A stretch of 64,000 nucleotides of DNA, taken from NCBI GenBank assembly GCA_018238545.1, contig JABCTC010000003.1, forward strand, positions 1 through 64,000, read 5' to 3'. The notes under the pieces were generated by a model. The model searched no databases, was not told where the DNA came from, and saw only the letters and a program-made list of their open reading frames with translations. Shown piece after piece: positions 26,519-39,163 of the stretch; position 1 is the stretch's first letter; every line of letters starts with the position of its first letter. A program made the position numbers and the translations under genes. The DNA comes from Candidatus Heimdallarchaeota archaeon (lineage in GTDB: Archaea; Asgardarchaeota; Heimdallarchaeia; Heimdallarchaeales; Heimdallarchaeaceae).

Positions 26519-27091
26519 ATGTCAGTTGAAGAAAAATCACCTATAGAAGAATTTGTAGAATTATACGCCAAAATCAAAGGCGATTTTGAAAAACTTCCTG
26601 AAATCTTAACTAAACTATCTAATTTCTCTGGTGATATTGTCAAAGAGAACAATGAACTTAAAGAAAAATTGAAGAATATTGATGAAAAGTTACAAGTTTT
26701 GCAAACAGAGTATGAAACAAAAGATTCCAAAATCTCTGACGTAGAAAAAGAAGCTGCTAAATATAAAAAGAAACTTGAAAGCGTCGAAGACCAGATGTCT
26801 GGATTACGTGATATGTACGAAGATATGGCTCAAGAAAGATCCAAGGACATGGAAATTCAAGACCTTCTAGCAATCTATACAGTTCTATTTGAGAAAGTTT
26901 TTGCAGCAGACCCACATACAAAGATTCTGTTGCTTTTACAAGGTGTAGACAAAGAAGTTTGGACAAGAGATGAATTAGTTAAAACCACAGGTTTTGCTCC
27001 TGCTGCAATCTTGAAAGCATTACATGATTTAAGGAACAACGAAATTGTTGAACTTGATGAATCTGCAAAAGAAGTGAAACTTATTATTTAA
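26519..27091 (+). CDS. Coiled-coil protein with C-terminal winged helix
   Basis: Heptad-rich N-terminus; DPHTKILLLL..TRDELVKTTGFAPAAILKALHDL..IVEL wHTH pattern. Confidence 0.7.
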   Translation: MSVEEKSPIEEFVELYAKIKGDFEKLPEILTKLSNFSGDIVKENNELKEKLKNIDEKLQVLQTEYETKDSKISDVEKEAAKYKKKLESVEDQMSGLRDMYEDMAQERSKDMEIQDLLAIYTVLFEKVFAADPHTKILLLLQGVDKEVWTRDELVKTTGFAPAAILKALHDLRNNEIVELDESAKEVKLII

Positions 27092-27765: not shown

Positions 27766-28695
27766 TCATTCTATATTTAGCATATCTTTTCCTTTTGATT
27801 CTTCTACGTCCTTTTCCTCTTCCTTCTCTCTCTGATTCATAGCATTTTTTACATATGTTAAATCTGCTAGAAATGCTTTCAGAGGGATAATCAACAATCC
27901 TAAGAAGTATATTAGAGCTGCTATAAAAGAAAAGATTGTTATTCCTATTGCAGGGTTAATATCGAAAAAGATATCCAATATAAGTAATGGAGAAAATGCT
28001 AAACCTATTGCAGAGAAAAGTAGCGTTCCTAAACCATAGTTCAATAAAATTGTGCTTATCTTTACAGGTCTCTTAATCTGAAATATCTTGTATAACCAGC
28101 TAGAACTGACATAATAGATTCCAAAAAATGGTGCAGACAATATGAGCGCTCCACCCAATATTCCAGTGATAAGAGGAGGTATTAGTAATTCAAAAAATGC
28201 TAGCCCGATACTGAATATTACTGTGCCTATTGTTATTAATGCTAATGCATATCCAAAAGACTCCAAAGCAGGACTCACAATGTTTGATAATGGTATAGGA
28301 CCACTGAAATAACCAAATGGACGAACTTTATCATAACCATATTTAGTTACAGGAGGTTCATATACTGGACCTTCAGTAATAACTTGTTTTCTTTGTACTA
28401 CTGGTGGGGCATACATCCTACTTTGATCTATTGGTGGCCAAATTACTAATTGAGGCTGTTTCCCAGGAGTTGCTCCTTGTGAAGGAGATTCCCGTTTGAC
28501 ATTGATGGGAGATTCAACTTTAACATCCTTGATATCTTCACCACAAGAACCACAAAACACATCTTCAACTTTGTTATGATCTTTGCATGCTGGACAAATT
28601 TTAAGTGGAATGCCGCAGTACTTGCAGAATTTAGATTCCTCTTTGATGTTTTTAAAACATGCAGGGCATTTAGATGTAACAGTCATTCTATTCAA
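27766..28695 (-). CDS. Double-zinc-ribbon membrane protein
   Basis: Four CxxC pairs at the N-terminus, a Pro-rich linker, about 4 TM helices. Confidence 0.75.
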   Translation of the reverse strand: MNRMTVTSKCPACFKNIKEESKFCKYCGIPLKICPACKDHNKVEDVFCGSCGEDIKDVKVESPINVKRESPSQGATPGKQPQLVIWPPIDQSRMYAPPVVQRKQVITEGPVYEPPVTKYGYDKVRPFGYFSGPIPLSNIVSPALESFGYALALITIGTVIFSIGLAFFELLIPPLITGILGGALILSAPFFGIYYVSSSWLYKIFQIKRPVKISTILLNYGLGTLLFSAIGLAFSPLLILDIFFDINPAIGITIFSFIAALIYFLGLLIIPLKAFLADLTYVKNAMNQREKEEEKDVEESKGKDMLNIE

Positions 28696-28744: not shown

Positions 28745-29887
28745 TCAACTTGACAAACTTATAAAGGATTTTCGCAATTTTTCTTCTGTTTCAATAATCT
28801 CCTTTCTACTATCTCTGCCCTTTTCAAGAACTTCCCAAAACCTATCGACATAATCTGGATGAATGCCTGTCAAAACTCCTCTAATGGTGAGATAGGGTTC
28901 ATCAATTGAATTTAGAGCAATCCTGACATCTCCTCTTTCAAACTTCTTGACTATCTTTCTGGTTTCGAAGGTAGATTGGTAAGTTGAAGGCGTTGATATT
29001 GTTAGATATCCTTTTTTTGCTCTGGTTACATCAGCTGTTAAACTTGAATTTCCATCTAATTCATTGAAGAATAAATCTGAAAATCTTACATTTTGAGCTT
29101 GTTCAAGAGTTTCAAATTCCTTATCCAAGGAGACGATAACTCCTAATCCATTTGCTTCTTTAGTGAATGCTAAAAAGAAATCATTCAAACCTGCATTATA
29201 ATCTTCATGATCACTTTCTTGCAAAGCTGCGAGAACAGTTGTGGTCATAGTCACGGCTAACAATTCATTACTTTGTTCTAGAACAACCATTGCTTCTTCT
29301 TCTTCTTCAAAGAATGAAAGAAGTTTCTCATTATCAAATAGTAATATAGGACTTTGAGGTCCCTTAAAATCAAATCCTAGAAAATGTAGTGCTTTTGCTG
29401 CATTATACTGAACTAAGGAGGACTCACCTTTTTCCGGAACGATAAAAATAATTGTTGGAGGGTCTCCTGTTATATCTGCTAGGATTTTGCTTGCTAACAT
29501 CGAACCCGCGCTACCTGTTCCTCCACCACTACCCACAATAAGATGTAGTGCTAAATTTTCTTCATCTCTTCGATCGTCTCTTTTGTAAAAAACTACTTTC
29601 TCAAGCTTATCTCTGAAGTCCATTTCTCTGGTCTTGAGTTTTTCATAAACCGAAGCCAAGTCACTATTTGAAGAAGTTTTATCTCTGTTAAACCACCAAT
29701 GTTCTTCGTAGTTTCTCATTTTTGTTTTGAAATTGTCTGATTGATTAATTGCAAGAGATTTTACTGTGATTCTACTCTCCTTCAAGTGATGAATTATTCT
29801 ATCTCCAATTCTGCAACCAGCATTTCCTATTCCTATAACAGCAATAGAAATTTTCTTTTTGAATAGTTTCCGTTTTAACCAAGACAT
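28745..29887 (-). CDS. Divergent tubulin/FtsZ/CetZ-superfamily GTPase
   Basis: T1 IGIGNAGCRI, signature loop GSGGGTGS, LLFDNEKL, T7-like NAGLND. Confidence 0.88.
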   Translation of the reverse strand: MSWLKRKLFKKKISIAVIGIGNAGCRIGDRIIHHLKESRITVKSLAINQSDNFKTKMRNYEEHWWFNRDKTSSNSDLASVYEKLKTREMDFRDKLEKVVFYKRDDRRDEENLALHLIVGSGGGTGSAGSMLASKILADITGDPPTIIFIVPEKGESSLVQYNAAKALHFLGFDFKGPQSPILLFDNEKLLSFFEEEEEAMVVLEQSNELLAVTMTTTVLAALQESDHEDYNAGLNDFFLAFTKEANGLGVIVSLDKEFETLEQAQNVRFSDLFFNELDGNSSLTADVTRAKKGYLTISTPSTYQSTFETRKIVKKFERGDVRIALNSIDEPYLTIRGVLTGIHPDYVDRFWEVLEKGRDSRKEIIETEEKLRKSFISLSS

Positions 29888-29889
29888 TA

Positions 29890-31251
29890 TTAAACATCTC
29901 CTGCAACTGTGGTAAAGATTCTTCTCATATTGAGTACCCAGATAATTATAGCCATAGAACTTTTTAGCAATTTACCGGTTGAAATTGGCACAGTTCTCAT
30001 GTTAGAAATATAGTTTCTTAACTGGAACATAGTCACGTTTTCTTGTTTTGCATCTTCAGCGTAATTTAATTCAAATTCTACAACATTTGCAAATATATAA
30101 TTGTCTAATTCGATCAAAGCTTTCGTCTTAAATTTCACCATTTTAACTCTGAAGCTGTTTAGAGGAAGATAAACCATCAAAAACATAACAGCTGCAAGAA
30201 GAACTGATATGATAATAACCATAACTGTCCAAGGGCTATCTGCACCTATGAAATTTAAAATCGGGAAGCCTAAACTGGGCATTTCACTAGCAAAACCATA
30301 AATCAGCAAGTTAATTGTTCCCATAGCCATCGCTATGGTAGTTATAAGTGCGGAAAGTAAGCCTGCAACAGGAATGTTTTCTAATTGTCTTATAGATCTT
30401 CCAGGTGTATCTCCCAAAGCCCAAATTATATCATAATTTTCTCTGTTTAGAAGGGTTCCATATTCATCAAGGTAAGTTGTCAATCTTTCTTTTAGCGTTT
30501 TTAGGATTTTGGAGTAAATTTGTGTATTAAGTACAAGGTAATAGGTTGCTAGATAGAAAATATAGAACATCATTGGGCTTACAATGCATGAGATTATACC
30601 AAAAGCATTAGCAACAGAGAGATTTGCTCCCGTAGTTTTAGGGATTGTTACTAATAACATTGGCAGGTTTAAACCTATTCCTGATAGAAGAGATAAAATG
30701 ATTATAATGGGATTCTTAGGTAAGTACCTATCATAATATTTTGCATAATACTCTCGCACTGGTTTTTCTATCCATTCTACACGTTTTTCTAGTGTTAAAC
30801 CTAAATATCCATCGTGTGTGTACTTCAAATAGAATAAGGAAAATAGCACTCCTCCTAGTAAAGGTATGAGCACAGAAACAGATAAATCTACCATGATTCT
30901 GCTGAGATTAAGTGGGTTTGCAAGCTCCTGGAATGGAACAATAACCATTATAATTGTTGGTATAAATAGTAATACAACATAAAACCACAATTTAATGTAA
31001 TTCCACCACTTCAAAGCTAAAATGGAATTAAGCTTAACTTTGAAGAGCGCAATTGGAACTAAGTAAAAATAGCGAAAAGGATTCTCTAGAGCTTTCAAAT
31101 AGCGAGGATTCTCTACCATCGCAGCTGTTCTAGGATACTTCTTATAGTGCTTAATAATTAAATCTTCAAATTCGAAAGAAGGTACCTCAACATCGTTTGG
31201 TTTTATCACTTTTGCTTTTACTGAAATAGATTTAGAAGTACTAGTTTCCAT
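29890..31251 (-). CDS. Hypothetical polytopic membrane protein, tightly linked to the tubulin-like gene
   Basis: About 6-7 hydrophobic segments; 2-bp gap to the downstream gene. Confidence 0.7.
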   Translation of the reverse strand: METSTSKSISVKAKVIKPNDVEVPSFEFEDLIIKHYKKYPRTAAMVENPRYLKALENPFRYFYLVPIALFKVKLNSILALKWWNYIKLWFYVVLLFIPTIIMVIVPFQELANPLNLSRIMVDLSVSVLIPLLGGVLFSLFYLKYTHDGYLGLTLEKRVEWIEKPVREYYAKYYDRYLPKNPIIIILSLLSGIGLNLPMLLVTIPKTTGANLSVANAFGIISCIVSPMMFYIFYLATYYLVLNTQIYSKILKTLKERLTTYLDEYGTLLNRENYDIIWALGDTPGRSIRQLENIPVAGLLSALITTIAMAMGTINLLIYGFASEMPSLGFPILNFIGADSPWTVMVIIISVLLAAVMFLMVYLPLNSFRVKMVKFKTKALIELDNYIFANVVEFELNYAEDAKQENVTMFQLRNYISNMRTVPISTGKLLKSSMAIIIWVLNMRRIFTTVAGDV

Positions 31252-31367
31252 GACATTTCCTTATATCGTGAGCTTACTTTTAACAATTTCGCATGAGTAA
31301 ATTATTTCATCTCTCTCATTTATGTTAGCTTTTTATAGGAAATTCTAATACAAATACTGATTCCAAA

Positions 31368-32839
31368 ATGACGAGTGGGGTGAAAACGACTGTTAGAGTG
31401 AAAATTAAAGCAGAAGGACTCACAACACGGAAAAGAACACGACTAAAACAGATTACGGGAAGAGATACTAGAATAATTAAACAGTACCTCAAAGTAATCT
31501 ATCACAATGAAGAGAAACTAGTGAACAAGAAAAGAGAAAAGAAGATAAATAAATTAAAACTCAACCACCTCACTCTTACAACAAGTAAGAAGAATAAACA
31601 ATTTAACCGGCTGAGTGTTAGACACGATTTAAAAAAGAACTTTCTTCGTTGCTCCCAGAATGAACTACAAGAATGTAGAGAAAATGCCGTAGCAATATAC
31701 CACAGCCAGCGAGTGAAAAATACCTTACCTGCTAAAGAAACACATGCTAAAAGATTCCTCGCACGCAACTAGCACATAATAAAAGGTTTGTAATTGCTTT
31801 TTCCCCTTCAAACACTATTGCTCGATGGTGGGTAGGGATTAGAGACTCTTTAGATACAAAGAAGAATAACACTCGCAATCACGAGAAATTATGGTTACCT
31901 CTTGCTTGTTCACCCTATCACGAGTATAAACTCCACCGGGGGAAAATACAGGCTCTCGAAGTGCTTTACTCTCCCAAGAAAAAGGAATGGTGGGTACATT
32001 TCAATCTGCTTCATGTTCCAGATAAGTACTCTTCTTCTCGTCCTCCAGCTGTGCTGGGGATAGATTTAGGAATCAATAAACGTGCGGTAAGTGCACTCCT
32101 TACACCAAAAGAAACAATCAACCGACATGAGATCAGTTTTTGGTCTGATAAGACACGAAAAAAACTACTAAAGGAAAAAGAAAGAAAAATAGCAGAACTA
32201 CAGAAACTTCTAGCTAAATCTAGTTTGACTTTTGGAAAAAGAAAAGAATTTCTTTACCAACTTAAGTCACTTAGAAAAAGATAAAGAACGGAACATAAGC
32301 TAACCGACCACACATATGTCAATAAAATCGTCAAGTACATTCTCTCATTAGGAAAGAGGTACGACCTCTTTGTGGTAGTAGGTTTTCCAATTCATATCCG
32401 CAAAAGTCATTATCGCGGTAATCTCCGCCCCTATTCTCGTAAAAGTGTCCACAAATGGAATTACAGGAGAATGACAGAATTGCTCAAATTCAAGCTTTTT
32501 CTGCATGGCTGGGAAGAGTACAGAATCCTAGCTATTGGTGAATCGTGGACCTCTTCTACCTGTTCTCGTTGTGGCTCCTATCACACTATCCGTCCTAACC
32601 AACCTACATTCATCTGCAATATTTGTGGGTATCAACTTAATGCTGACTTGAATGGAGCGAAGAATATAGCTAAAAGACTGATCAAGTATGTTCTACAACC
32701 AAAATATAACTCTATTAAAGATCAAGTTAGTGGAAAGTTTTTTCCTCTCAGTTCTTTTCGTGTCTTCCCTGTCCTAAGCCAATGGCTACAGACAAAGCAG
32801 AGTCATCTGCTTACTCCTGGAGCTGGAGTGAGTACCTAA
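31368..32839 (+). pseudogene. tnpB: Disrupted tnpB (frameshift near 31740-31780; in-frame TAA at 32282)
   Basis: Three ORF fragments colinear with the intact 492-aa paralog; CAA in the paralog corresponds to TAA at 32282. Confidence 0.92.
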
Positions 32840-33056
32840 GGTACTCAATAACATTGTCTCCAGTAATGAGTCCCGGGGAGGAGATGAACCCGCTCACCTT
32901 CACTAACCCCGTGTGTTGAAGGTGTAATCCTAGATCTTGAAGCTACCTTACGCTACTGCTTACTGCTATGCTACCTTAATACGTTCTTGGTTGGGAAGAG
33001 TCCTCAAAATTATTTTCCGCTACCCTTAATTGTGGAAAGTAGGAAAAATAACTCAT
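32775..33056 (+). ncRNA. Putative omegaRNA scaffold (copy A)
   Basis: Conserved non-coding tail with hairpins agcaga/tctgct, tgagtacc/ggtactca and caccttca/tgaaggtg, and a compensatory change relative to copy B; 5' limit approximate. Confidence 0.72.
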
Positions 33057-33075
33057 AGTTACAAAACAAATTTAT

Positions 33076-34515
33076 GTGAATACATGCTTACTAAACTTGA
33101 TTCAGTTGAAATATTCGAAAATAGTTTGTACGATTGGACCTTCTTCTAGTGATGAATCAACTCTCAAAAAGATGATTAACGCAGGCATGGATGTAGCTCG
33201 GTTGAACTTCTCTCATGGGACTCACCAATCACATGAAGAAGTGTTCAAAAGAATAAGAAATATCGATTCTCGCATTGCTATAGCGATTGATATTAGCGGG
33301 CCAAAGATAAGACTTGGTAAACTAGAACAAAGTTATGTTTTAGAAAGGGATCAACAGGTTATACTTACTACTGACGATGTAGTGGGAACTAAAGATTTAC
33401 TCCCTGTTAATTATCCTTCTTTGATAAAGGAAGTCCAACAAGATTCTTTTGTTTATATTAATGATGGATTTGTAAAACTCAAGGTTATTCAGAAAGAGAA
33501 CAATAATCTAATTTGTAAGATTATTTATGGCGGTTACGTCTCATCTAGAAAGGGTGTTAACGTTCCAGAATCTAATCTTTCGATGAGAGTTCCTACAGAG
33601 AAAGATATAACTGATATCAAAAAAGCATGCGAACTGGGTGCAGATTATCTGTTTATATCCTTTGTTAGAAGTTCTACTGATCTTGTTAAAGTAAGAGAAA
33701 TTATCAATAATTGCTCCGATAGAACTATTGGATTAGTTTCAAAGATTGAGCACAAAGACGCAGTAGATAACATTAAGGAAATTGTAACTGCAAGTGATGG
33801 TATAATGGTTGCTAGGGGCGACTTAGGCGTTGAAGTAGGTGCAGCTAAAGTTCCTGTCCTTCAGAAGGAAATAATTAGGCTTTCTGTGAATATGGCCAAA
33901 CCTGTAATTGTTGCAACACAGATGCTTGAATCTATGACTAAAGAGTCTTTACCTACACGAGCTGAGGCAAGTGATGTAGCTCATGCCGTATTTGATGGAG
34001 CTGATGCACTGATGTTATCTGGAGAAACAGCTAAAGGGCATCATCCTGTTACGGTTGTTAAAACTATGTCAGAGATTATTCATGAGGCAGAAAACAATCT
34101 TTCCTTCAACACTTCCTTTATTTCTGAATCAAATCTTCCTAAAGGAGGCGAAATAGGTCAAGCAGCAGTTAAACTTGGTCAAAAATTAGCTGTGGAAGCT
34201 TTAGTTGCTATTACTCAAACAGGATACTCGGCAAGAATGATATCAAGAAACAGAGTCCCCCTACCTATTTATGCTGTTACTCCAGACGAATCAACAATGA
34301 GAAGGACCAATTTATTATGGGCAGTAAAATCTCTCTATCATCCTTATGATGGTGACTTTAATCAGATGATATCGAGTACAATAAAAAAACTCCACACTGA
34401 AAAATTCATTCATCTTAACAATGATGTAATAGTTGTTGCTGGTTCAGTAGTTGGACTTCCTGGAAGGATTAATACCATACAAGTTCTCAATGTTAAAGAA
34501 ACTATTGAGAGTTAA
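33076..34515 (+). CDS. pyk: Pyruvate kinase
   Basis: KIVCTIGP, RLNFSHG, GPKIR, MVARGDLG, ATQMLESM, LMLSGETA. True start may be a few codons downstream. Confidence 0.97.
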   Translation: MNTCLLNLIQLKYSKIVCTIGPSSSDESTLKKMINAGMDVARLNFSHGTHQSHEEVFKRIRNIDSRIAIAIDISGPKIRLGKLEQSYVLERDQQVILTTDDVVGTKDLLPVNYPSLIKEVQQDSFVYINDGFVKLKVIQKENNNLICKIIYGGYVSSRKGVNVPESNLSMRVPTEKDITDIKKACELGADYLFISFVRSSTDLVKVREIINNCSDRTIGLVSKIEHKDAVDNIKEIVTASDGIMVARGDLGVEVGAAKVPVLQKEIIRLSVNMAKPVIVATQMLESMTKESLPTRAEASDVAHAVFDGADALMLSGETAKGHHPVTVVKTMSEIIHEAENNLSFNTSFISESNLPKGGEIGQAAVKLGQKLAVEALVAITQTGYSARMISRNRVPLPIYAVTPDESTMRRTNLLWAVKSLYHPYDGDFNQMISSTIKKLHTEKFIHLNNDVIVVAGSVVGLPGRINTIQVLNVKETIES

Positions 34516-34597
34516 ACTAACTCTCACCTATTTTTCTTTTTACAATAAATTAGAAAACTCTTAAAAGGAAGAATGAATCTCAGTAATTGAAGTAGAG

Positions 34598-35872
34598 ATG
34601 ACAAAGATAAGCTCAATATTTGGAAAGAAAAAACGAAAAGAAAAGGAAGAACAGCCAAGTTTTTTCAATGGACTATACAAATTTAATCATCAAAATATAG
34701 TTAAGAACAGTCAAACCTCTGAAGAGATCTTGCTTGGCAGTGAAAAATCCGATACTTTGTTTTTAGAAACTACTACAAAATTTTCTTCGTTCGGATATGT
34801 TTTTGCTGGAAAAACAGGGATCAATATACTTTCTCAAATGAAGACACGCATAAGAGAAAACTTCCCCCCAGCACTAATTGTATCTACTTTAAATGAATTC
34901 GATAGAATTGGTGAAAAATTTCCATTTATTGAAGTTCCAAATATATCCTTAGAGGATCAAACATTCTTTCAGGGTAATCAGTGGTATCTTACAAACAAGG
35001 ACAGAGTTGAGGATAGATTAGCTCGTTTACACAAAGAAGTTTCAATTGTATTTATCTTTGTAGAAAATAATGCTTTCTTATTAGGCTTGCTTACACCCAT
35101 ACTCAAATTCTTAGAAACTACTGATGTTCAACCCGTTGTGGTTCTAAACTTACCCAATGATGAAAGTGCACTAAATGAAACTGTCAGTGCTCTTACCTTC
35201 ATTTATAATCTCATGAATAAGGAAGAATCAACAAACATTCCTTTCATCCTCTTCGATGAAAATATACTTGTGAAAGCCAATCCAACAATGAATTTGGGTG
35301 AGTTATTAACAAGATTTACTGATCGAGTAGCTAATATATTCTGTGATATAATGCTTGGTTCGTTAACTACATCAACTTTCTATCAAACAGATTTAAGCAA
35401 TTTTATTAGAATATTTGAAAATGTGAGAGGACCTTGTAAACTGGTTTCCGTTGATATTTATGATAATAAACCAAATATATCAAGTCTTCTTGAACAGAAA
35501 CAGCTCTATGGGTCAAGTTTTTCAGTGAAAAAAGATGCAACTAGAGGATTTATGATAATTCAACCAAGTAACAAAGGCCTTAGTACTAAGGAGTACAGAA
35601 ATTTTAGAGATATTTACTCCAATTTTGATGTAAACATCTCAATTCTTGAAAAGCGAAATAATGGTTCAATAATTAGAGGTATTTTTACTTATAATGAGTT
35701 ACCAAAATCATTATTAGAGCTGTATGAAAACCTCTCTGAAATCTATATTGAAATTCTAGATGATCAAAATAACGTTAGTGAATATTTTGATTTAATAAAT
35801 CTTGAAGATTTAATGAATATACAACGATACAGAATCAATGTTAGAGTTAAAGAAGAAAAAGTAAAAGAATAG
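34598..35872 (+). CDS. Degenerate tubulin/FtsZ-like paralog lacking the GGGTG loop
   Basis: Colinear matches to 28745-29887: ILFDENIL/LLFDNEKL, DLSNFIRIF/GLNDFFLAF, ATRGFMII/AKKGYLTI, IIRGIFT/TIRGVLT. Confidence 0.65.
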   Translation: MTKISSIFGKKKRKEKEEQPSFFNGLYKFNHQNIVKNSQTSEEILLGSEKSDTLFLETTTKFSSFGYVFAGKTGINILSQMKTRIRENFPPALIVSTLNEFDRIGEKFPFIEVPNISLEDQTFFQGNQWYLTNKDRVEDRLARLHKEVSIVFIFVENNAFLLGLLTPILKFLETTDVQPVVVLNLPNDESALNETVSALTFIYNLMNKEESTNIPFILFDENILVKANPTMNLGELLTRFTDRVANIFCDIMLGSLTTSTFYQTDLSNFIRIFENVRGPCKLVSVDIYDNKPNISSLLEQKQLYGSSFSVKKDATRGFMIIQPSNKGLSTKEYRNFRDIYSNFDVNISILEKRNNGSIIRGIFTYNELPKSLLELYENLSEIYIEILDDQNNVSEYFDLINLEDLMNIQRYRINVRVKEEKVKE

Positions 35873-36103: not shown

Positions 36104-39100
36104 ATGCAAGGTAAACTCCGTACAATTATAGGTATTTTAATTTTAACAATTACAGTAAGTTCATCAGTCGCAATGGGTGTATTGCTTCCTCTTCACTCTT
36201 CGAATTTAATTACCCAAATATATACAGATATGGATAATAATGCTCGGTTGACAGAGAGTGATTTCTTTCCAAATGACGGAAGCGGTAATTACTCTGAATG
36301 GATGTATACAGGTGTAGGAACAAACACTTCAAAATTTGTTGATCAAGCAGTTTTTGAATTCTTCAATATTACAGATAGAGAGGCTTACCTCGACTACAAT
36401 ACGAAAATAGCGTACTTCTTTGTGCAAGGTGAACTAGTTTTTGACATTATTATTAATAAAACAGTTTTAGAATACGACGTAGAATCTGACTATGTAGTTT
36501 ATGCTTATAGAAAACAATTTCTCTTCAATGCAGAAGACTCATCCCTAACTGGTGATGAAACTGTTTTGAATTTCAACTATCTTTGGCCATATTATATTGA
36601 ACATTTTGGAAATGGATCAGAATATGGTTTTCAGAGTTTTATAGCATCAAAACTAATTCAAGAAGAATTAATCGGTTTTAATACATCACTAGGTTATACC
36701 TTTGATGAATTAGCTTATGCAGTTATGAATAGAACATATGCTGAAGAAGAAGGTATAGTGGATTTAGGCATCTATTTGCCCCACAATTGGTTAAGTGTAA
36801 GACCTGCTTTTCCAGATCTTAACTTTGATATTGCAACAAGTTATCAGATATTGTATGATGCTATATATAATGGTCATGATTACTCATTACTAACAGGCGA
36901 AGCTGGTTCAACTAAATACTTCCTTGATTTAGTAAGAGGTCTTGATTTTGAAGGACAATATGATTTGATTGTTGATGTTGAACAACTTTTAACAGATATT
37001 TATGGAATTGATACTCCACAAGAACAAGAATACGCAAAATCCCTTGCAGCCTATATGAATTATTTACTAGGAAAGCCTTCATTGGATTGGCTTTATGAAA
37101 ATCAAATATCATATGTTTGTGAAAGAACTGCTATGGATTGGGTATTAGGTATTGAAGATCCTCTTATGGATGGAAAAAGATTCCCCTTAGTTAACAATCA
37201 ATCATTATCAAGTTCAAGTATTGATTGGGATTTAGATTTGTATTATGCAGAAAAACTTGGATCATATGATGTAAATGATGTTGGTAAAATCATAGCAATA
37301 GCTAATATTCCAGGGTATTATTATTCTCAATCTATGGAACTATTCGTGGAAGATAACCTAGCTTACGTGATAGAAGGTGGAACTGATATTAAAATAGTTA
37401 ATATGACAGATCCCTTATTCAAAGCAATCGGTCAATTCGGAGACTTCATTCTTGACACTGCTCTTCCCAATCCTTCATACGATCCTATAGGCGTTGATGG
37501 TTATATTTCAAACCTTGTTGTAGTTGATTCATATATTTATGCAGTAGAAGGTGACACTGGATTAGAAATACTCAATGCAACCGACCCAAGTGCTATTTAC
37601 GAACTTGACCAGTGGGATAATTTTGGGAATGCTGATATGCGAGATGTTGATAACGCCGTTTTTGGAACATCAACTCCTTATGATGCTCTTATAATAGCAA
37701 ATGGACAACATGGTCTAACTTATGCCAGATTGCAAACTGAAGATAGAACAGTAAGTACAGTTGTTAATTTTGCAGGGTTATCTGGAGAGGCTTATTCCGT
37801 AGATGAATACAATGATTACGCTTTCGTAGGTTTAGGAATTGATGGAATTGATGTAGTTAGTATAGATGGTCTCGACGGTACAATGGCGCTTGAATATCAT
37901 TATGATTCAATCAATTTTGCAACATTCAATAACATTCTAGATGTTAAAGCAGAAAATGGATTCCTATACGTTCTTGATGCAGTTGAGGGATTGTTAATAT
38001 TCGATATATTGTTTAATGGTACTCTTATTGAACAAGGTCAATTTGCATATGGACCTACGGAAACACCTTACATTGATGTTTATGTTGAAGGAACTAATGC
38101 CTATTTAGCACAAGGAGATTATGGTCTTGTTGTAGTAGATATCTCTAACAAACTCAGTCCTTCTGAAAATGCCAGATTTGACGGTGCTGAACACAAAGGT
38201 TTAGCATACAGCGTATATGTTGATGGAAGTGATGTTTATCTTTCAGATTATTCTCAAGGACTGGTTCATCTCAATTATGTCTCTAACACCTTTTCAATTG
38301 CTAATAAAGATCAGTTACACACTTTCGTTGAAGCTTGGCAAAGCGAGAACAATATTCAATTCAATAATTGGCTTCTAAGTGATCCTGAATTCGAAGCAAA
38401 TGAAACATATGATTCATTCGGATTATACACATTTGTTGAAAGAGGTTTCAGACAACAATGGACAGAGTATTTCCTTAGACCTTACATCTTCTCCTCATTA
38501 ACAGATACAGCTCTGTTTGTTGATAAAACAGTATTAGTTTATACCGCACAAGCTCAGATACCATATCTACAAAATGAGGAAAACAGCCTGTATTGGATGC
38601 AAGACGCTAACTTCCTCAATGAAAGTTTCCAACATGCAGGAAGATGGAGCATCCTTCATGGGGTAGAATATCAAGCAACAGATTTTGATATTACTCATTC
38701 CTTCCCTGGTACATTACGAGATGAATTCCACATGCAATTCATGTTAGTAGAACCTAAAACAGGGTCTATAATTGAACGCAAAGATAGAGTACAATATAAT
38801 ACACGAGCTATAGACTATAAAGAGGCTTATTCACTTCTCAATAAGACTACATTCGGATACGAGTGGGAAGTCCCTGGGGCTAATTACGTCAATTTACCTG
38901 TTGATCACATCTACAAGACATGGCATGTTACATATCCAGCTTTACCTGGAGATATGGCAACACTCTTCTGGCAAGAAGATGTCTACAAAGCTACAAATAA
39001 TTTCTATGAAGTGTTAAGAGAAGACTTCTTAGATAAAATCGACAATGCTGATGCTCTGAGAACATTAGGTGCTTTTGGTTCAATGTTCAGTGTTGCCGCT

Positions 39101-39163
39101 GGTTTTATTGTAGCTTCTGTTGTGCTCAATTTCATGAAGAAGAGAGCAGAAATTCCAAAATAA
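36104..39163 (+). CDS. CD36/SR-B-like two-TM protein with an inserted LVIVD-repeat beta-propeller
   Basis: N- and C-terminal TM; FEFFNITD..QG, RTAMDWVLGIEDPL, HMQFMLVEPKTG..DRVQYN and LFWQE match CD36 motifs; central GLVVVDISN-type repeats. Confidence 0.72.
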   Translation: MQGKLRTIIGILILTITVSSSVAMGVLLPLHSSNLITQIYTDMDNNARLTESDFFPNDGSGNYSEWMYTGVGTNTSKFVDQAVFEFFNITDREAYLDYNTKIAYFFVQGELVFDIIINKTVLEYDVESDYVVYAYRKQFLFNAEDSSLTGDETVLNFNYLWPYYIEHFGNGSEYGFQSFIASKLIQEELIGFNTSLGYTFDELAYAVMNRTYAEEEGIVDLGIYLPHNWLSVRPAFPDLNFDIATSYQILYDAIYNGHDYSLLTGEAGSTKYFLDLVRGLDFEGQYDLIVDVEQLLTDIYGIDTPQEQEYAKSLAAYMNYLLGKPSLDWLYENQISYVCERTAMDWVLGIEDPLMDGKRFPLVNNQSLSSSSIDWDLDLYYAEKLGSYDVNDVGKIIAIANIPGYYYSQSMELFVEDNLAYVIEGGTDIKIVNMTDPLFKAIGQFGDFILDTALPNPSYDPIGVDGYISNLVVVDSYIYAVEGDTGLEILNATDPSAIYELDQWDNFGNADMRDVDNAVFGTSTPYDALIIANGQHGLTYARLQTEDRTVSTVVNFAGLSGEAYSVDEYNDYAFVGLGIDGIDVVSIDGLDGTMALEYHYDSINFATFNNILDVKAENGFLYVLDAVEGLLIFDILFNGTLIEQGQFAYGPTETPYIDVYVEGTNAYLAQGDYGLVVVDISNKLSPSENARFDGAEHKGLAYSVYVDGSDVYLSDYSQGLVHLNYVSNTFSIANKDQLHTFVEAWQSENNIQFNNWLLSDPEFEANETYDSFGLYTFVERGFRQQWTEYFLRPYIFSSLTDTALFVDKTVLVYTAQAQIPYLQNEENSLYWMQDANFLNESFQHAGRWSILHGVEYQATDFDITHSFPGTLRDEFHMQFMLVEPKTGSIIERKDRVQYNTRAIDYKEAYSLLNKTTFGYEWEVPGANYVNLPVDHIYKTWHVTYPALPGDMATLFWQEDVYKATNNFYEVLREDFLDKIDNADALRTLGAFGSMFSVAAGFIVASVVLNFMKKRAEIPK

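Follow-up and report, generated by a model that had tools for sequence, protein, structure and literature searches.

What can two divergent relatives of tubulin and FtsZ do close together in an archaeal genome when one carries a glycine-rich GTP-binding loop and the other has a different sequence in its place? The question is raised by a 64,000-nucleotide stretch of Candidatus Heimdallarchaeota archaeon (assembly GCA_018238545.1, contig JABCTC010000003.1, positions 1 to 64,000 of the forward strand; hereafter the window), for which an original prediction had proposed a heteromeric or capped membrane-associated filament with an active subunit and a pseudo-GTPase subunit. The observation on the two genes, here called A and B, is confirmed, and this interpretation is partly supported by sequence and predicted structure. 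Three genes are central to the argument, the third encoding a membrane protein named TM453:

28745-29887, minus strand: gene A, a divergent tubulin/FtsZ-superfamily GTPase of 380 amino acids, recognised by PF00091, CetZ matches in PDB and Foldseek
29890-31251, minus strand: TM453, an orphan multi-pass membrane protein of 453 amino acids with about 6-7 hydrophobic segments
34598-35872, plus strand: gene B, 424 amino acids, a paralog of A with the tubulin/FtsZ fold and no GTP site, recognised by AF2, Foldseek, VIA-align and hhalign

Gene A, the GTP-site paralog

Gene A reads GIGNAGC in T1, GSGGGTGSAG in T4 and NAGLND in T7; the T1 and glycine-rich GTP loops first reported for it are therefore in place. 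The Pfam family Tubulin (PF00091) scores it at 37 bits, with a gathering cut-off of 33, and the PDB sequences listed as matches are only those of Haloferax CetZ2 (E = 1e-5), CetZ1 (E = 1e-3) and the B. cereus TubZ/RepX protein (E = 0.02). Foldseek on the AF2 model (pLDDT 85) identifies a two-domain tubulin/FtsZ fold, with TubZ 4ei7 at E = 5e-17, CetZ2 4b45 at a TM value of 0.84 and a range of TM values from 0.74 to 0.84. The protein begins with the conserved N-terminal MSWLKRKLFKKK and ends in a long C-terminal helix. Across the gene A family, the T4 motif GGGTGSAG, the T1 motif GxGNAGC and the T6 motif FDNEK are strongly kept, and in the alignment of this protein family T4 is invariant; a glycine-rich T3 loop is missing. 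T7 is only averagely conserved, with the consensus NADLND, which matches the canonical NxDxxD. Since NAGLND retains both the asparagine and the terminal aspartate, its earlier description as an altered T7 overstates the change.

Neither A nor B was identified as a canonical FtsZ: the FtsZ equivalog model TIGR00065 of NCBIfam, whose cut-off is 295 bits, scores A at 16 and does not match B, and the real FtsZ of this genome is encoded elsewhere (G000:C49:48443-48919; L021:1285-2469), with 148 bits to PF00091 and a T4 reading GLGKGTGTG.

Gene B, a tubulin/FtsZ fold without a GTP site

Gene B matched no Pfam (E <= 1) or NCBIfam family, PF00091 and TIGR00065 included, and no PDB sequence, whether searched as a single sequence or as a family profile. 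Its predicted structure is more informative. The AF2 model (pLDDT 87, pTM 0.88) retrieved TubZ first in Foldseek (E = 2.6e-17), with FtsZ and CetZ chains in the hundreds behind it, and VIA-align superposed residues 61-405 with Z scores of 28.6 on the Methanosaeta CetZ 3zid, 26.8 on TubZ and 26.6 on CetZ2; tubulins scored lower, at about 23. The complete tubulin/FtsZ fold that the original prediction presupposed for its second protein is thus found in the model. The motifs in this fold read FAGKTG for T1, VENNAF in the T4 position and QTDLSN for T7, with the catalytic acid replaced. VENNAF occupies the aligned T4 columns, as had been noted. Both nucleotide loops, T1 and T4, are missing, as is the acid of T7, and by these motifs B is a pseudo-GTPase, also as proposed. 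Residues 1-60, which start with MTKISSIFGKKKRK, do not belong to the fold and are a conserved extension. Surveys of the tubulin superfamily that rely on Pfam overlook members like B, which retain the fold and are GTP-dead.

Common origin of A and B

The relationship of the two proteins escapes pairwise comparison (BLASTP of A against B, E = 3, not significant) and emerges between profiles: hhalign aligned family A with family B at 96% probability and E = 2e-9 over 301 columns that span both domains, and the hidden Markov model of the B family finds the A genes of related genomes at E of about 1e-11. The claim that the second gene aligns throughout with the first holds, and all five motif pairs quoted for it are in register in the hhalign and MAFFT alignments. 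When a profile of A and B orthologs was compared with 1.84 billion representative proteins, the 42 matches at E < 1e-30 were the family itself, and scores outside it fell sharply, to 99 bits or less; homologs of A and B carry the source names of proteins from metagenome-assembled genomes of Heimdallarchaeota or Heimdallarchaeaceae. Four outside proteins, one from each of the three largest clades beyond the family plus the best-scoring outside match, were checked against PDB sequences. They turned out to be a phage-type TubZ, a RepX-type TubZ, a divergent FtsZ and a member of another TubZ-like group; among the clades identified in this way there was no canonical CetZ.

The IQ-TREE phylogeny under a mixture model, computed from A, B, FtsZ, TubZ-like and P0126 rows with no verified CetZ sequence among them, recovered the A clade with support of 100/98 and the B clade with 91/93. 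A and B, together with the long-branch protein P0126, were split from all FtsZ and TubZ-like rows at 96/94. In the window's family (f1, whose homologs NCBI names Heimdallarchaeaceae), the stem branch of B measures 1.53 substitutions per site, compared to 0.68 for the stem of A. A and B are best explained as sister paralogs from one ancient duplication, both originally GTP-binding; as part of the overall reading developed below, this carries slightly better than even confidence. The A+B family is lineage-specific, and not demonstrably CetZ, TubZ or true tubulin.

The membrane-protein partner

The stop codon of TM453 lies 2 nucleotides ahead of the start of gene A. TM453 has no Pfam or NCBIfam family, and a search of the ESM Atlas returned only its own Heimdall cluster and unnamed low-value matches; its conserved N-terminus is acidic (FEFEDL). 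In the loci examined it always stands between or beside A and B. A TM453 profile matched 28/29, 1/1, 2/3 and 12/12 genomes across the four families of the order, one of 22 genomes in a neighbouring family (f5), and nothing elsewhere in 399 Asgard genomes, barring one borderline partial match of 17 bits. TM453 is therefore a lineage marker of the module. The A+B profile found matches in 45 of the order's 46 genomes, and most of these had just two. Had the genes failed to co-occur in relatives, the pairing would have been in doubt; given these counts and the order-wide presence of TM453, that is clearly not the case, and A, B and TM453 are found together in nearly every genome of the order. By sequence and distribution, we take the three as one module.

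The single f5 genome with TM453, which is 8% contaminated, contains a B-TM-A operon at about 49-55% identity to the version of family f3 (L040; G060:C52:1-4055). This copy represents either a transfer or a contaminating contig.

Both paralogs start, in all families, with a short basic peptide containing L/I-F (MSWLKRKLFKKK, MTKISSIFGKKK, MAKKRSLFRFFKK, MFKRLFGK). The N-termini had been described as basic and amphipathic; their basic and hydrophobic character is conserved in both protein families, and the amphipathic part of the description fares less well, with hydrophobic moments of 0.45-0.5, below the protein-wide 95th percentile, which is 0.64. These values give moderate support only to the idea of a strongly amphipathic helix at the N-terminus, and it was rejected. 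The peptide may be a membrane-targeting helix, or it may be a docking peptide for the acidic N-terminus of TM453.

Motif loss and selection

Comparison across families indicates how B came to lack its GTP site. The B orthologs of families f2, f3 and f5 have kept GIGGAG in T1, GxGGTGxG in T4 and the acid (Asp/Glu) in T7. In all five f1 genera, B is without T1 and T4, and its T4 position reads ENNAF, DNTCF, DNSFY, SNSRF or GNDGF; the position of the T7 acid is occupied by Asn in genera g1 and g10 and by Asp in g13. In f4 it is A that has no T4 (SSDGFSTA, SSGTFSSG), and B reads G-x-G-[SA]-T-G in two genomes and is eroded in a third; both copies were read in two f4 genomes, G030 and G028, of which G030 has a recognisable B site. 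Since the motifs are kept in f2, f3 and f5 and lost in B of f1 and A of f4, loss of the GTP site is derived, has recurred and can affect either partner. This pattern of erosion fits partners that share one job, and the suggested analogy to tubulin subfunctionalization, a division of labour between the subunits, gains support from the reciprocal erosion of B in f1 and A in f4. Living intermediates can thus be found in the module: there are versions in which both subunits are active, versions in which B is dead and retains the T7 acid or is dead altogether, and versions in which A is the eroded copy.

A stronger formulation would be an independent, Asgard-specific obligate pair of the alpha/beta type, assembled on a dedicated seven-pass membrane protein, as a cytoskeletal structure unseen in other lineages. 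If one working GTP site sufficed for such a pair, either partner could become a pseudo-GTPase, as B may have done in the Heimdallarchaeaceae and A in a sister family. We advance this formulation tentatively, and at somewhat less than even confidence.

The lost GTP site of B does not equate to a decaying gene. Ratios of nonsynonymous to synonymous substitution rates (dN/dS) against the closest ortholog are 0.14 for B, 0.05 for A and 0.05 for TM453; by this measure gene B is under purifying selection. The T7 face is the most conserved part of B: nowhere in the protein is entropy lower than in the T7/H8 block (residues 259-273). Loops T1, T2 and T5 of B are relaxed; its T4-replacement segment, T3-equivalent region and N-terminal extension are well conserved.

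A proposed membrane-associated assembly and its alternatives

These observations suggest, at slightly better than even confidence, that A, B and TM453 make up a single tubulin-like system, specific to this lineage and associated with the membrane, where B, carrying no nucleotide, would attach through its T7 face to GTP-bound A. In such a system A would bind GTP and could polymerise. The f1 version of B, which has lost T1 and T4 and in most genera also the T7 acid, has kept its fold and above all the T7/H8 face, and would use this T7 face for docking on the GTP face of A. In the window's genus, the Asn that replaces Asp/Glu in T7 of B would prevent GTP hydrolysis at the interface, so that B would either cap or stabilise A assemblies, or form a fixed A-B pair. 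TM453, and possibly the basic-hydrophobic N-terminal peptides of both paralogs, would keep the assembly at the membrane. Precedents exist for a T7 change of this kind. Lys254 of beta-tubulin leaves the GTP of alpha-tubulin unhydrolysed. In CetZ1, the T7 change E218A hyperstabilises assemblies (bioRxiv 10.1101/2024.04.08.588506).

The arrangement of the genes bears on whether B still acts together with A. In the three sister families and in one f5 genome, B-TM-A lie on one strand with spacers of 0-4 nucleotides or overlaps, and pyruvate kinase (pyk) usually adjoins this operon. In the window A and B are divergently oriented, A on the minus and B on the plus strand, and the layout of its family has a CD36-like gene, B and usually pyk on one strand, and TM, A and a zinc-ribbon membrane protein on the other. 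The two genes that flank B in the window are:

33076-34515, plus strand: pyk, pyruvate kinase (PF00224 and PF02887), directly upstream of B
36104-39163, plus strand: CD36-like membrane protein with an inserted propeller (an LVIVD match and a weak CD36 match), directly downstream of B

The CD36-like gene adjoins B in L001-L012, L017, L018, L036-L038 and L049, and four genera of the window's family share the order from B to the CD36-like gene; genus g11 departs from it, with the CD36-like gene beside TM-A and B elsewhere.

B could therefore have been neofunctionalised and ceased to be a partner of A, serving instead as a non-polymerising scaffold or adaptor, for example for the CD36-like membrane protein. 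In the window's family B has left the TM-A operon, and in four genera it runs in the same direction as pyk and the CD36-like gene; this would agree with such a history, as would its long stem branch and higher dN/dS. New contacts are suggested by the conserved 60-amino-acid extension and by the T4 segment, which is remodelled but conserved. However, most genomes place B only a few kilobases from TM-A, and nearly all contain A and B together; conservation in B is highest at the T7/H8 face, which in this superfamily is known only to insert into the nucleotide pocket of a partner; the g11 arrangement separates B from its supposed new client; and the reciprocal erosion in f4 speaks for a function that the two paralogs share. 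On balance, we consider a neofunctionalised B unlikely.

An assembly of A with B does not have to be a capped A homopolymer. It could be an obligate alternating A-B-A-B polymer, analogous to alpha/beta-tubulin, and static in the window's genus because neither interface could hydrolyse GTP. Such a polymer would be in keeping with an ancestral state of two GTP-binding paralogs in one operon, one copy of each per genome, and with the loss of T4 by either partner in different families; the conserved T3-equivalent and T4-replacement segments of B would be expected if its top face were still an interface, and the g13 version of B, with its T7 acid, could still activate the GTPase of A. The present data do not separate a cap from a co-polymer. 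Against an alternating polymer, loops T1, T2 and T5 of B are relaxed, and A and B are no longer co-transcribed in the window's family, so that nothing in the gene arrangement holds the two proteins to equal amounts. An obligate alternating polymer is given a low probability here.

Several points also weigh against the docking of B on GTP-bound A at a membrane. In the window's family, B lies outside the TM-A operon, in the pyk-B-CD36-like row on the opposite strand, and in g11 it is found on another contig beside the gene for a coiled-coil protein, away from TM-A and the CD36-like gene; with this separation, B may have taken another role. In the f4 genome G028 (L016, C296) T4 is eroded in both copies, A reading SSGTFSSG with KATLNN in T7 and B reading GSDSIGVG, and the module there may work without a canonical GTP site. 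The conserved T4-replacement and T3-equivalent segments indicate that the top face of B is not simply decaying, and a conserved top face fits a subunit within the filament or a new ligand as well as a cap. Without a glycine-rich T3 loop, A itself may have an unusual GTPase cycle. Finally, judged by their sequences, the N-termini are only moderately amphipathic.

Comparison with known systems

Among characterised proteins, CetZ (3zid, 4b45, 4b46) resembles the pair in several respects: it provides the best PDB sequence matches of A, the top structural match of B and a near-top structural match of A, combines an FtsZ-like core with a C-terminal helix, and is encoded on the chromosome outside the division cluster. 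Yet the sequence similarity is marginal, A is without the glycine-rich T3 loop, and CetZ has neither a dedicated polytopic membrane partner nor a GTP-dead paralog, in contrast to the A/B module.

The TubZ/RepX proteins (4ei7, 2xka, 3v3t) supply the top Foldseek match of both A and B as well as close outside clusters, and share the long C-terminal helix. They differ in that A and B belong to a chromosomal, order-wide, vertically inherited module with two paralogs, one of them without a GTP site, and with a membrane-protein partner in place of TubR and a centromere (no search was aimed at TubR). The contig of the window is chromosome-like and carries pyk and Topo VI. Considering this contig, the order-wide inheritance and the multi-pass membrane partner, membership in the TubZ type III partition systems was rejected.

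The same comparison bears on the idea that the module is a device for cell division or DNA segregation, either replacing the second archaeal FtsZ or acting as a TubZ-like partition motor. One canonical FtsZ was found in the window's 92%-complete genome, compared to two in most archaea (PMC9871819), and TubZ/RepX are among the nearest outside sequences and folds. Against this stand the chromosomal locus, vertically inherited across the order among housekeeping genes, a dedicated partner that is a polytopic membrane protein and not a DNA-binding adaptor, and the lack of an FtsZ-type C-terminal tail and of a division or ribosomal-gene context; a role in division or segregation is highly improbable.

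With alpha/beta-tubulin, BtubAB and AtubAB, the pair shares, by analogy, two sister paralogs with divided roles, one of which has a non-catalytic T7 residue. Both tubulin subunits, however, bind GTP, and B here is without any nucleotide site. Neither A nor B matched Tubulin_C, and no tubulin was among their PDB sequence matches at E <= 1; with these results and structural Z scores of about 23, membership among true tubulins (alpha/beta, BtubAB, AtubAB, OdinTubulin) was rejected. The published Asgard AtubAB or Heim-alpha/beta genes are adjacent, overlapping true tubulins without a membrane-protein gene, which were found by BLAST with OdinTubulin (PMC13394414, PMC13371889), and for the same features (adjacent, overlapping, true tubulins) the possibility that A and B are these Heimdallarchaeial alpha/beta or AtubAB proteins was discarded.

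Two published groups come closer in other ways. The "Asg.Tub" group was collected from Heimdallarchaeia and Lokiarchaeia via PF00091, lies nearer to CetZ than to tubulin, and is surrounded by "unknown genes" (Santana-Molina et al., 2023; PMC9871819). It may include family A and those B orthologs that are canonical; TM453 was not found in the families of Lokiarchaeia size that were searched. That paper differs from the present analysis in describing no paralog pair, membrane partner or GTP-dead member, and the window's B is invisible to PF00091. The FtsZl1 or Tubulin_2 operons combine divergent tubulin-superfamily proteins with membrane proteins and have a predicted membrane role (Makarova and Koonin, 2010; PMC2875224). 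They differ from the A/B module in partners, domain layout and taxonomic range, and membership in this group was rejected, as neither A nor B matched PF13809 at E <= 1. The literature search yielded no description of the A/B pair, its membrane partner or its GTP-dead member.

Among known archaea, Heimdallarchaeia belong to those most closely related to eukaryotes, and the split of tubulin-type proteins into catalytic and non-catalytic partners is central to the origin of microtubules. The A/B/TM453 module would be a second, independent natural case of such a division of labour, in this case linked to a membrane protein of its own. None of the three proteins is large, and the predicted structures of A and B are confident; the proposed assembly is open to direct bench test.

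Gene neighbourhood

The remaining genes around the module in the window are:

26519-27091, plus strand: coiled-coil protein of 190 amino acids near A
27766-28695, minus strand: double zinc-ribbon protein (PF12773 and PF13248) with 5 hydrophobic segments, 49 nucleotides downstream of A
31368-32839, plus strand: broken tnpB (Cas12f1-like) remnant in three open reading frame pieces between TM453 and pyk

The original prediction had listed pyk, the membrane-protein gene and a tnpB insertion as the only elements that separate A and B. Only the last, C-terminal piece of the tnpB remnant matches PF07282 (TNB domain), and in a relative from the same genus (L018) the end of pyk and the start of the TM gene are 90 nucleotides apart, without any intervening element; from this comparison the remnant is taken to be an insertion specific to the window's genome. 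The same cannot be said of pyk, which is an order-wide neighbour: despite inversions it is found next to B or the module in loci of all four families. It is probably not a functional part of the module. A conserved link to a 658-amino-acid protein of unassigned family, which stands beside pyk in the sister families and is absent from the window, was considered and rejected.

The zinc-ribbon protein follows A in L017, L018, L036, L037 and L039, and had no tblastn match (E <= 1e-4 / 1e-5) in the fetched loci of other families. The neighbourhood of the coiled-coil protein is likewise kept in the window's family only. Outside the window, a PlsY-type glycerol-3-phosphate acyltransferase, a lipid-synthesis gene of bacterial type (PF02660, E = 1e-46), lies next to gene A in four f3 genera (L013:11717-12367, minus strand; L014, L020, L031, L045).

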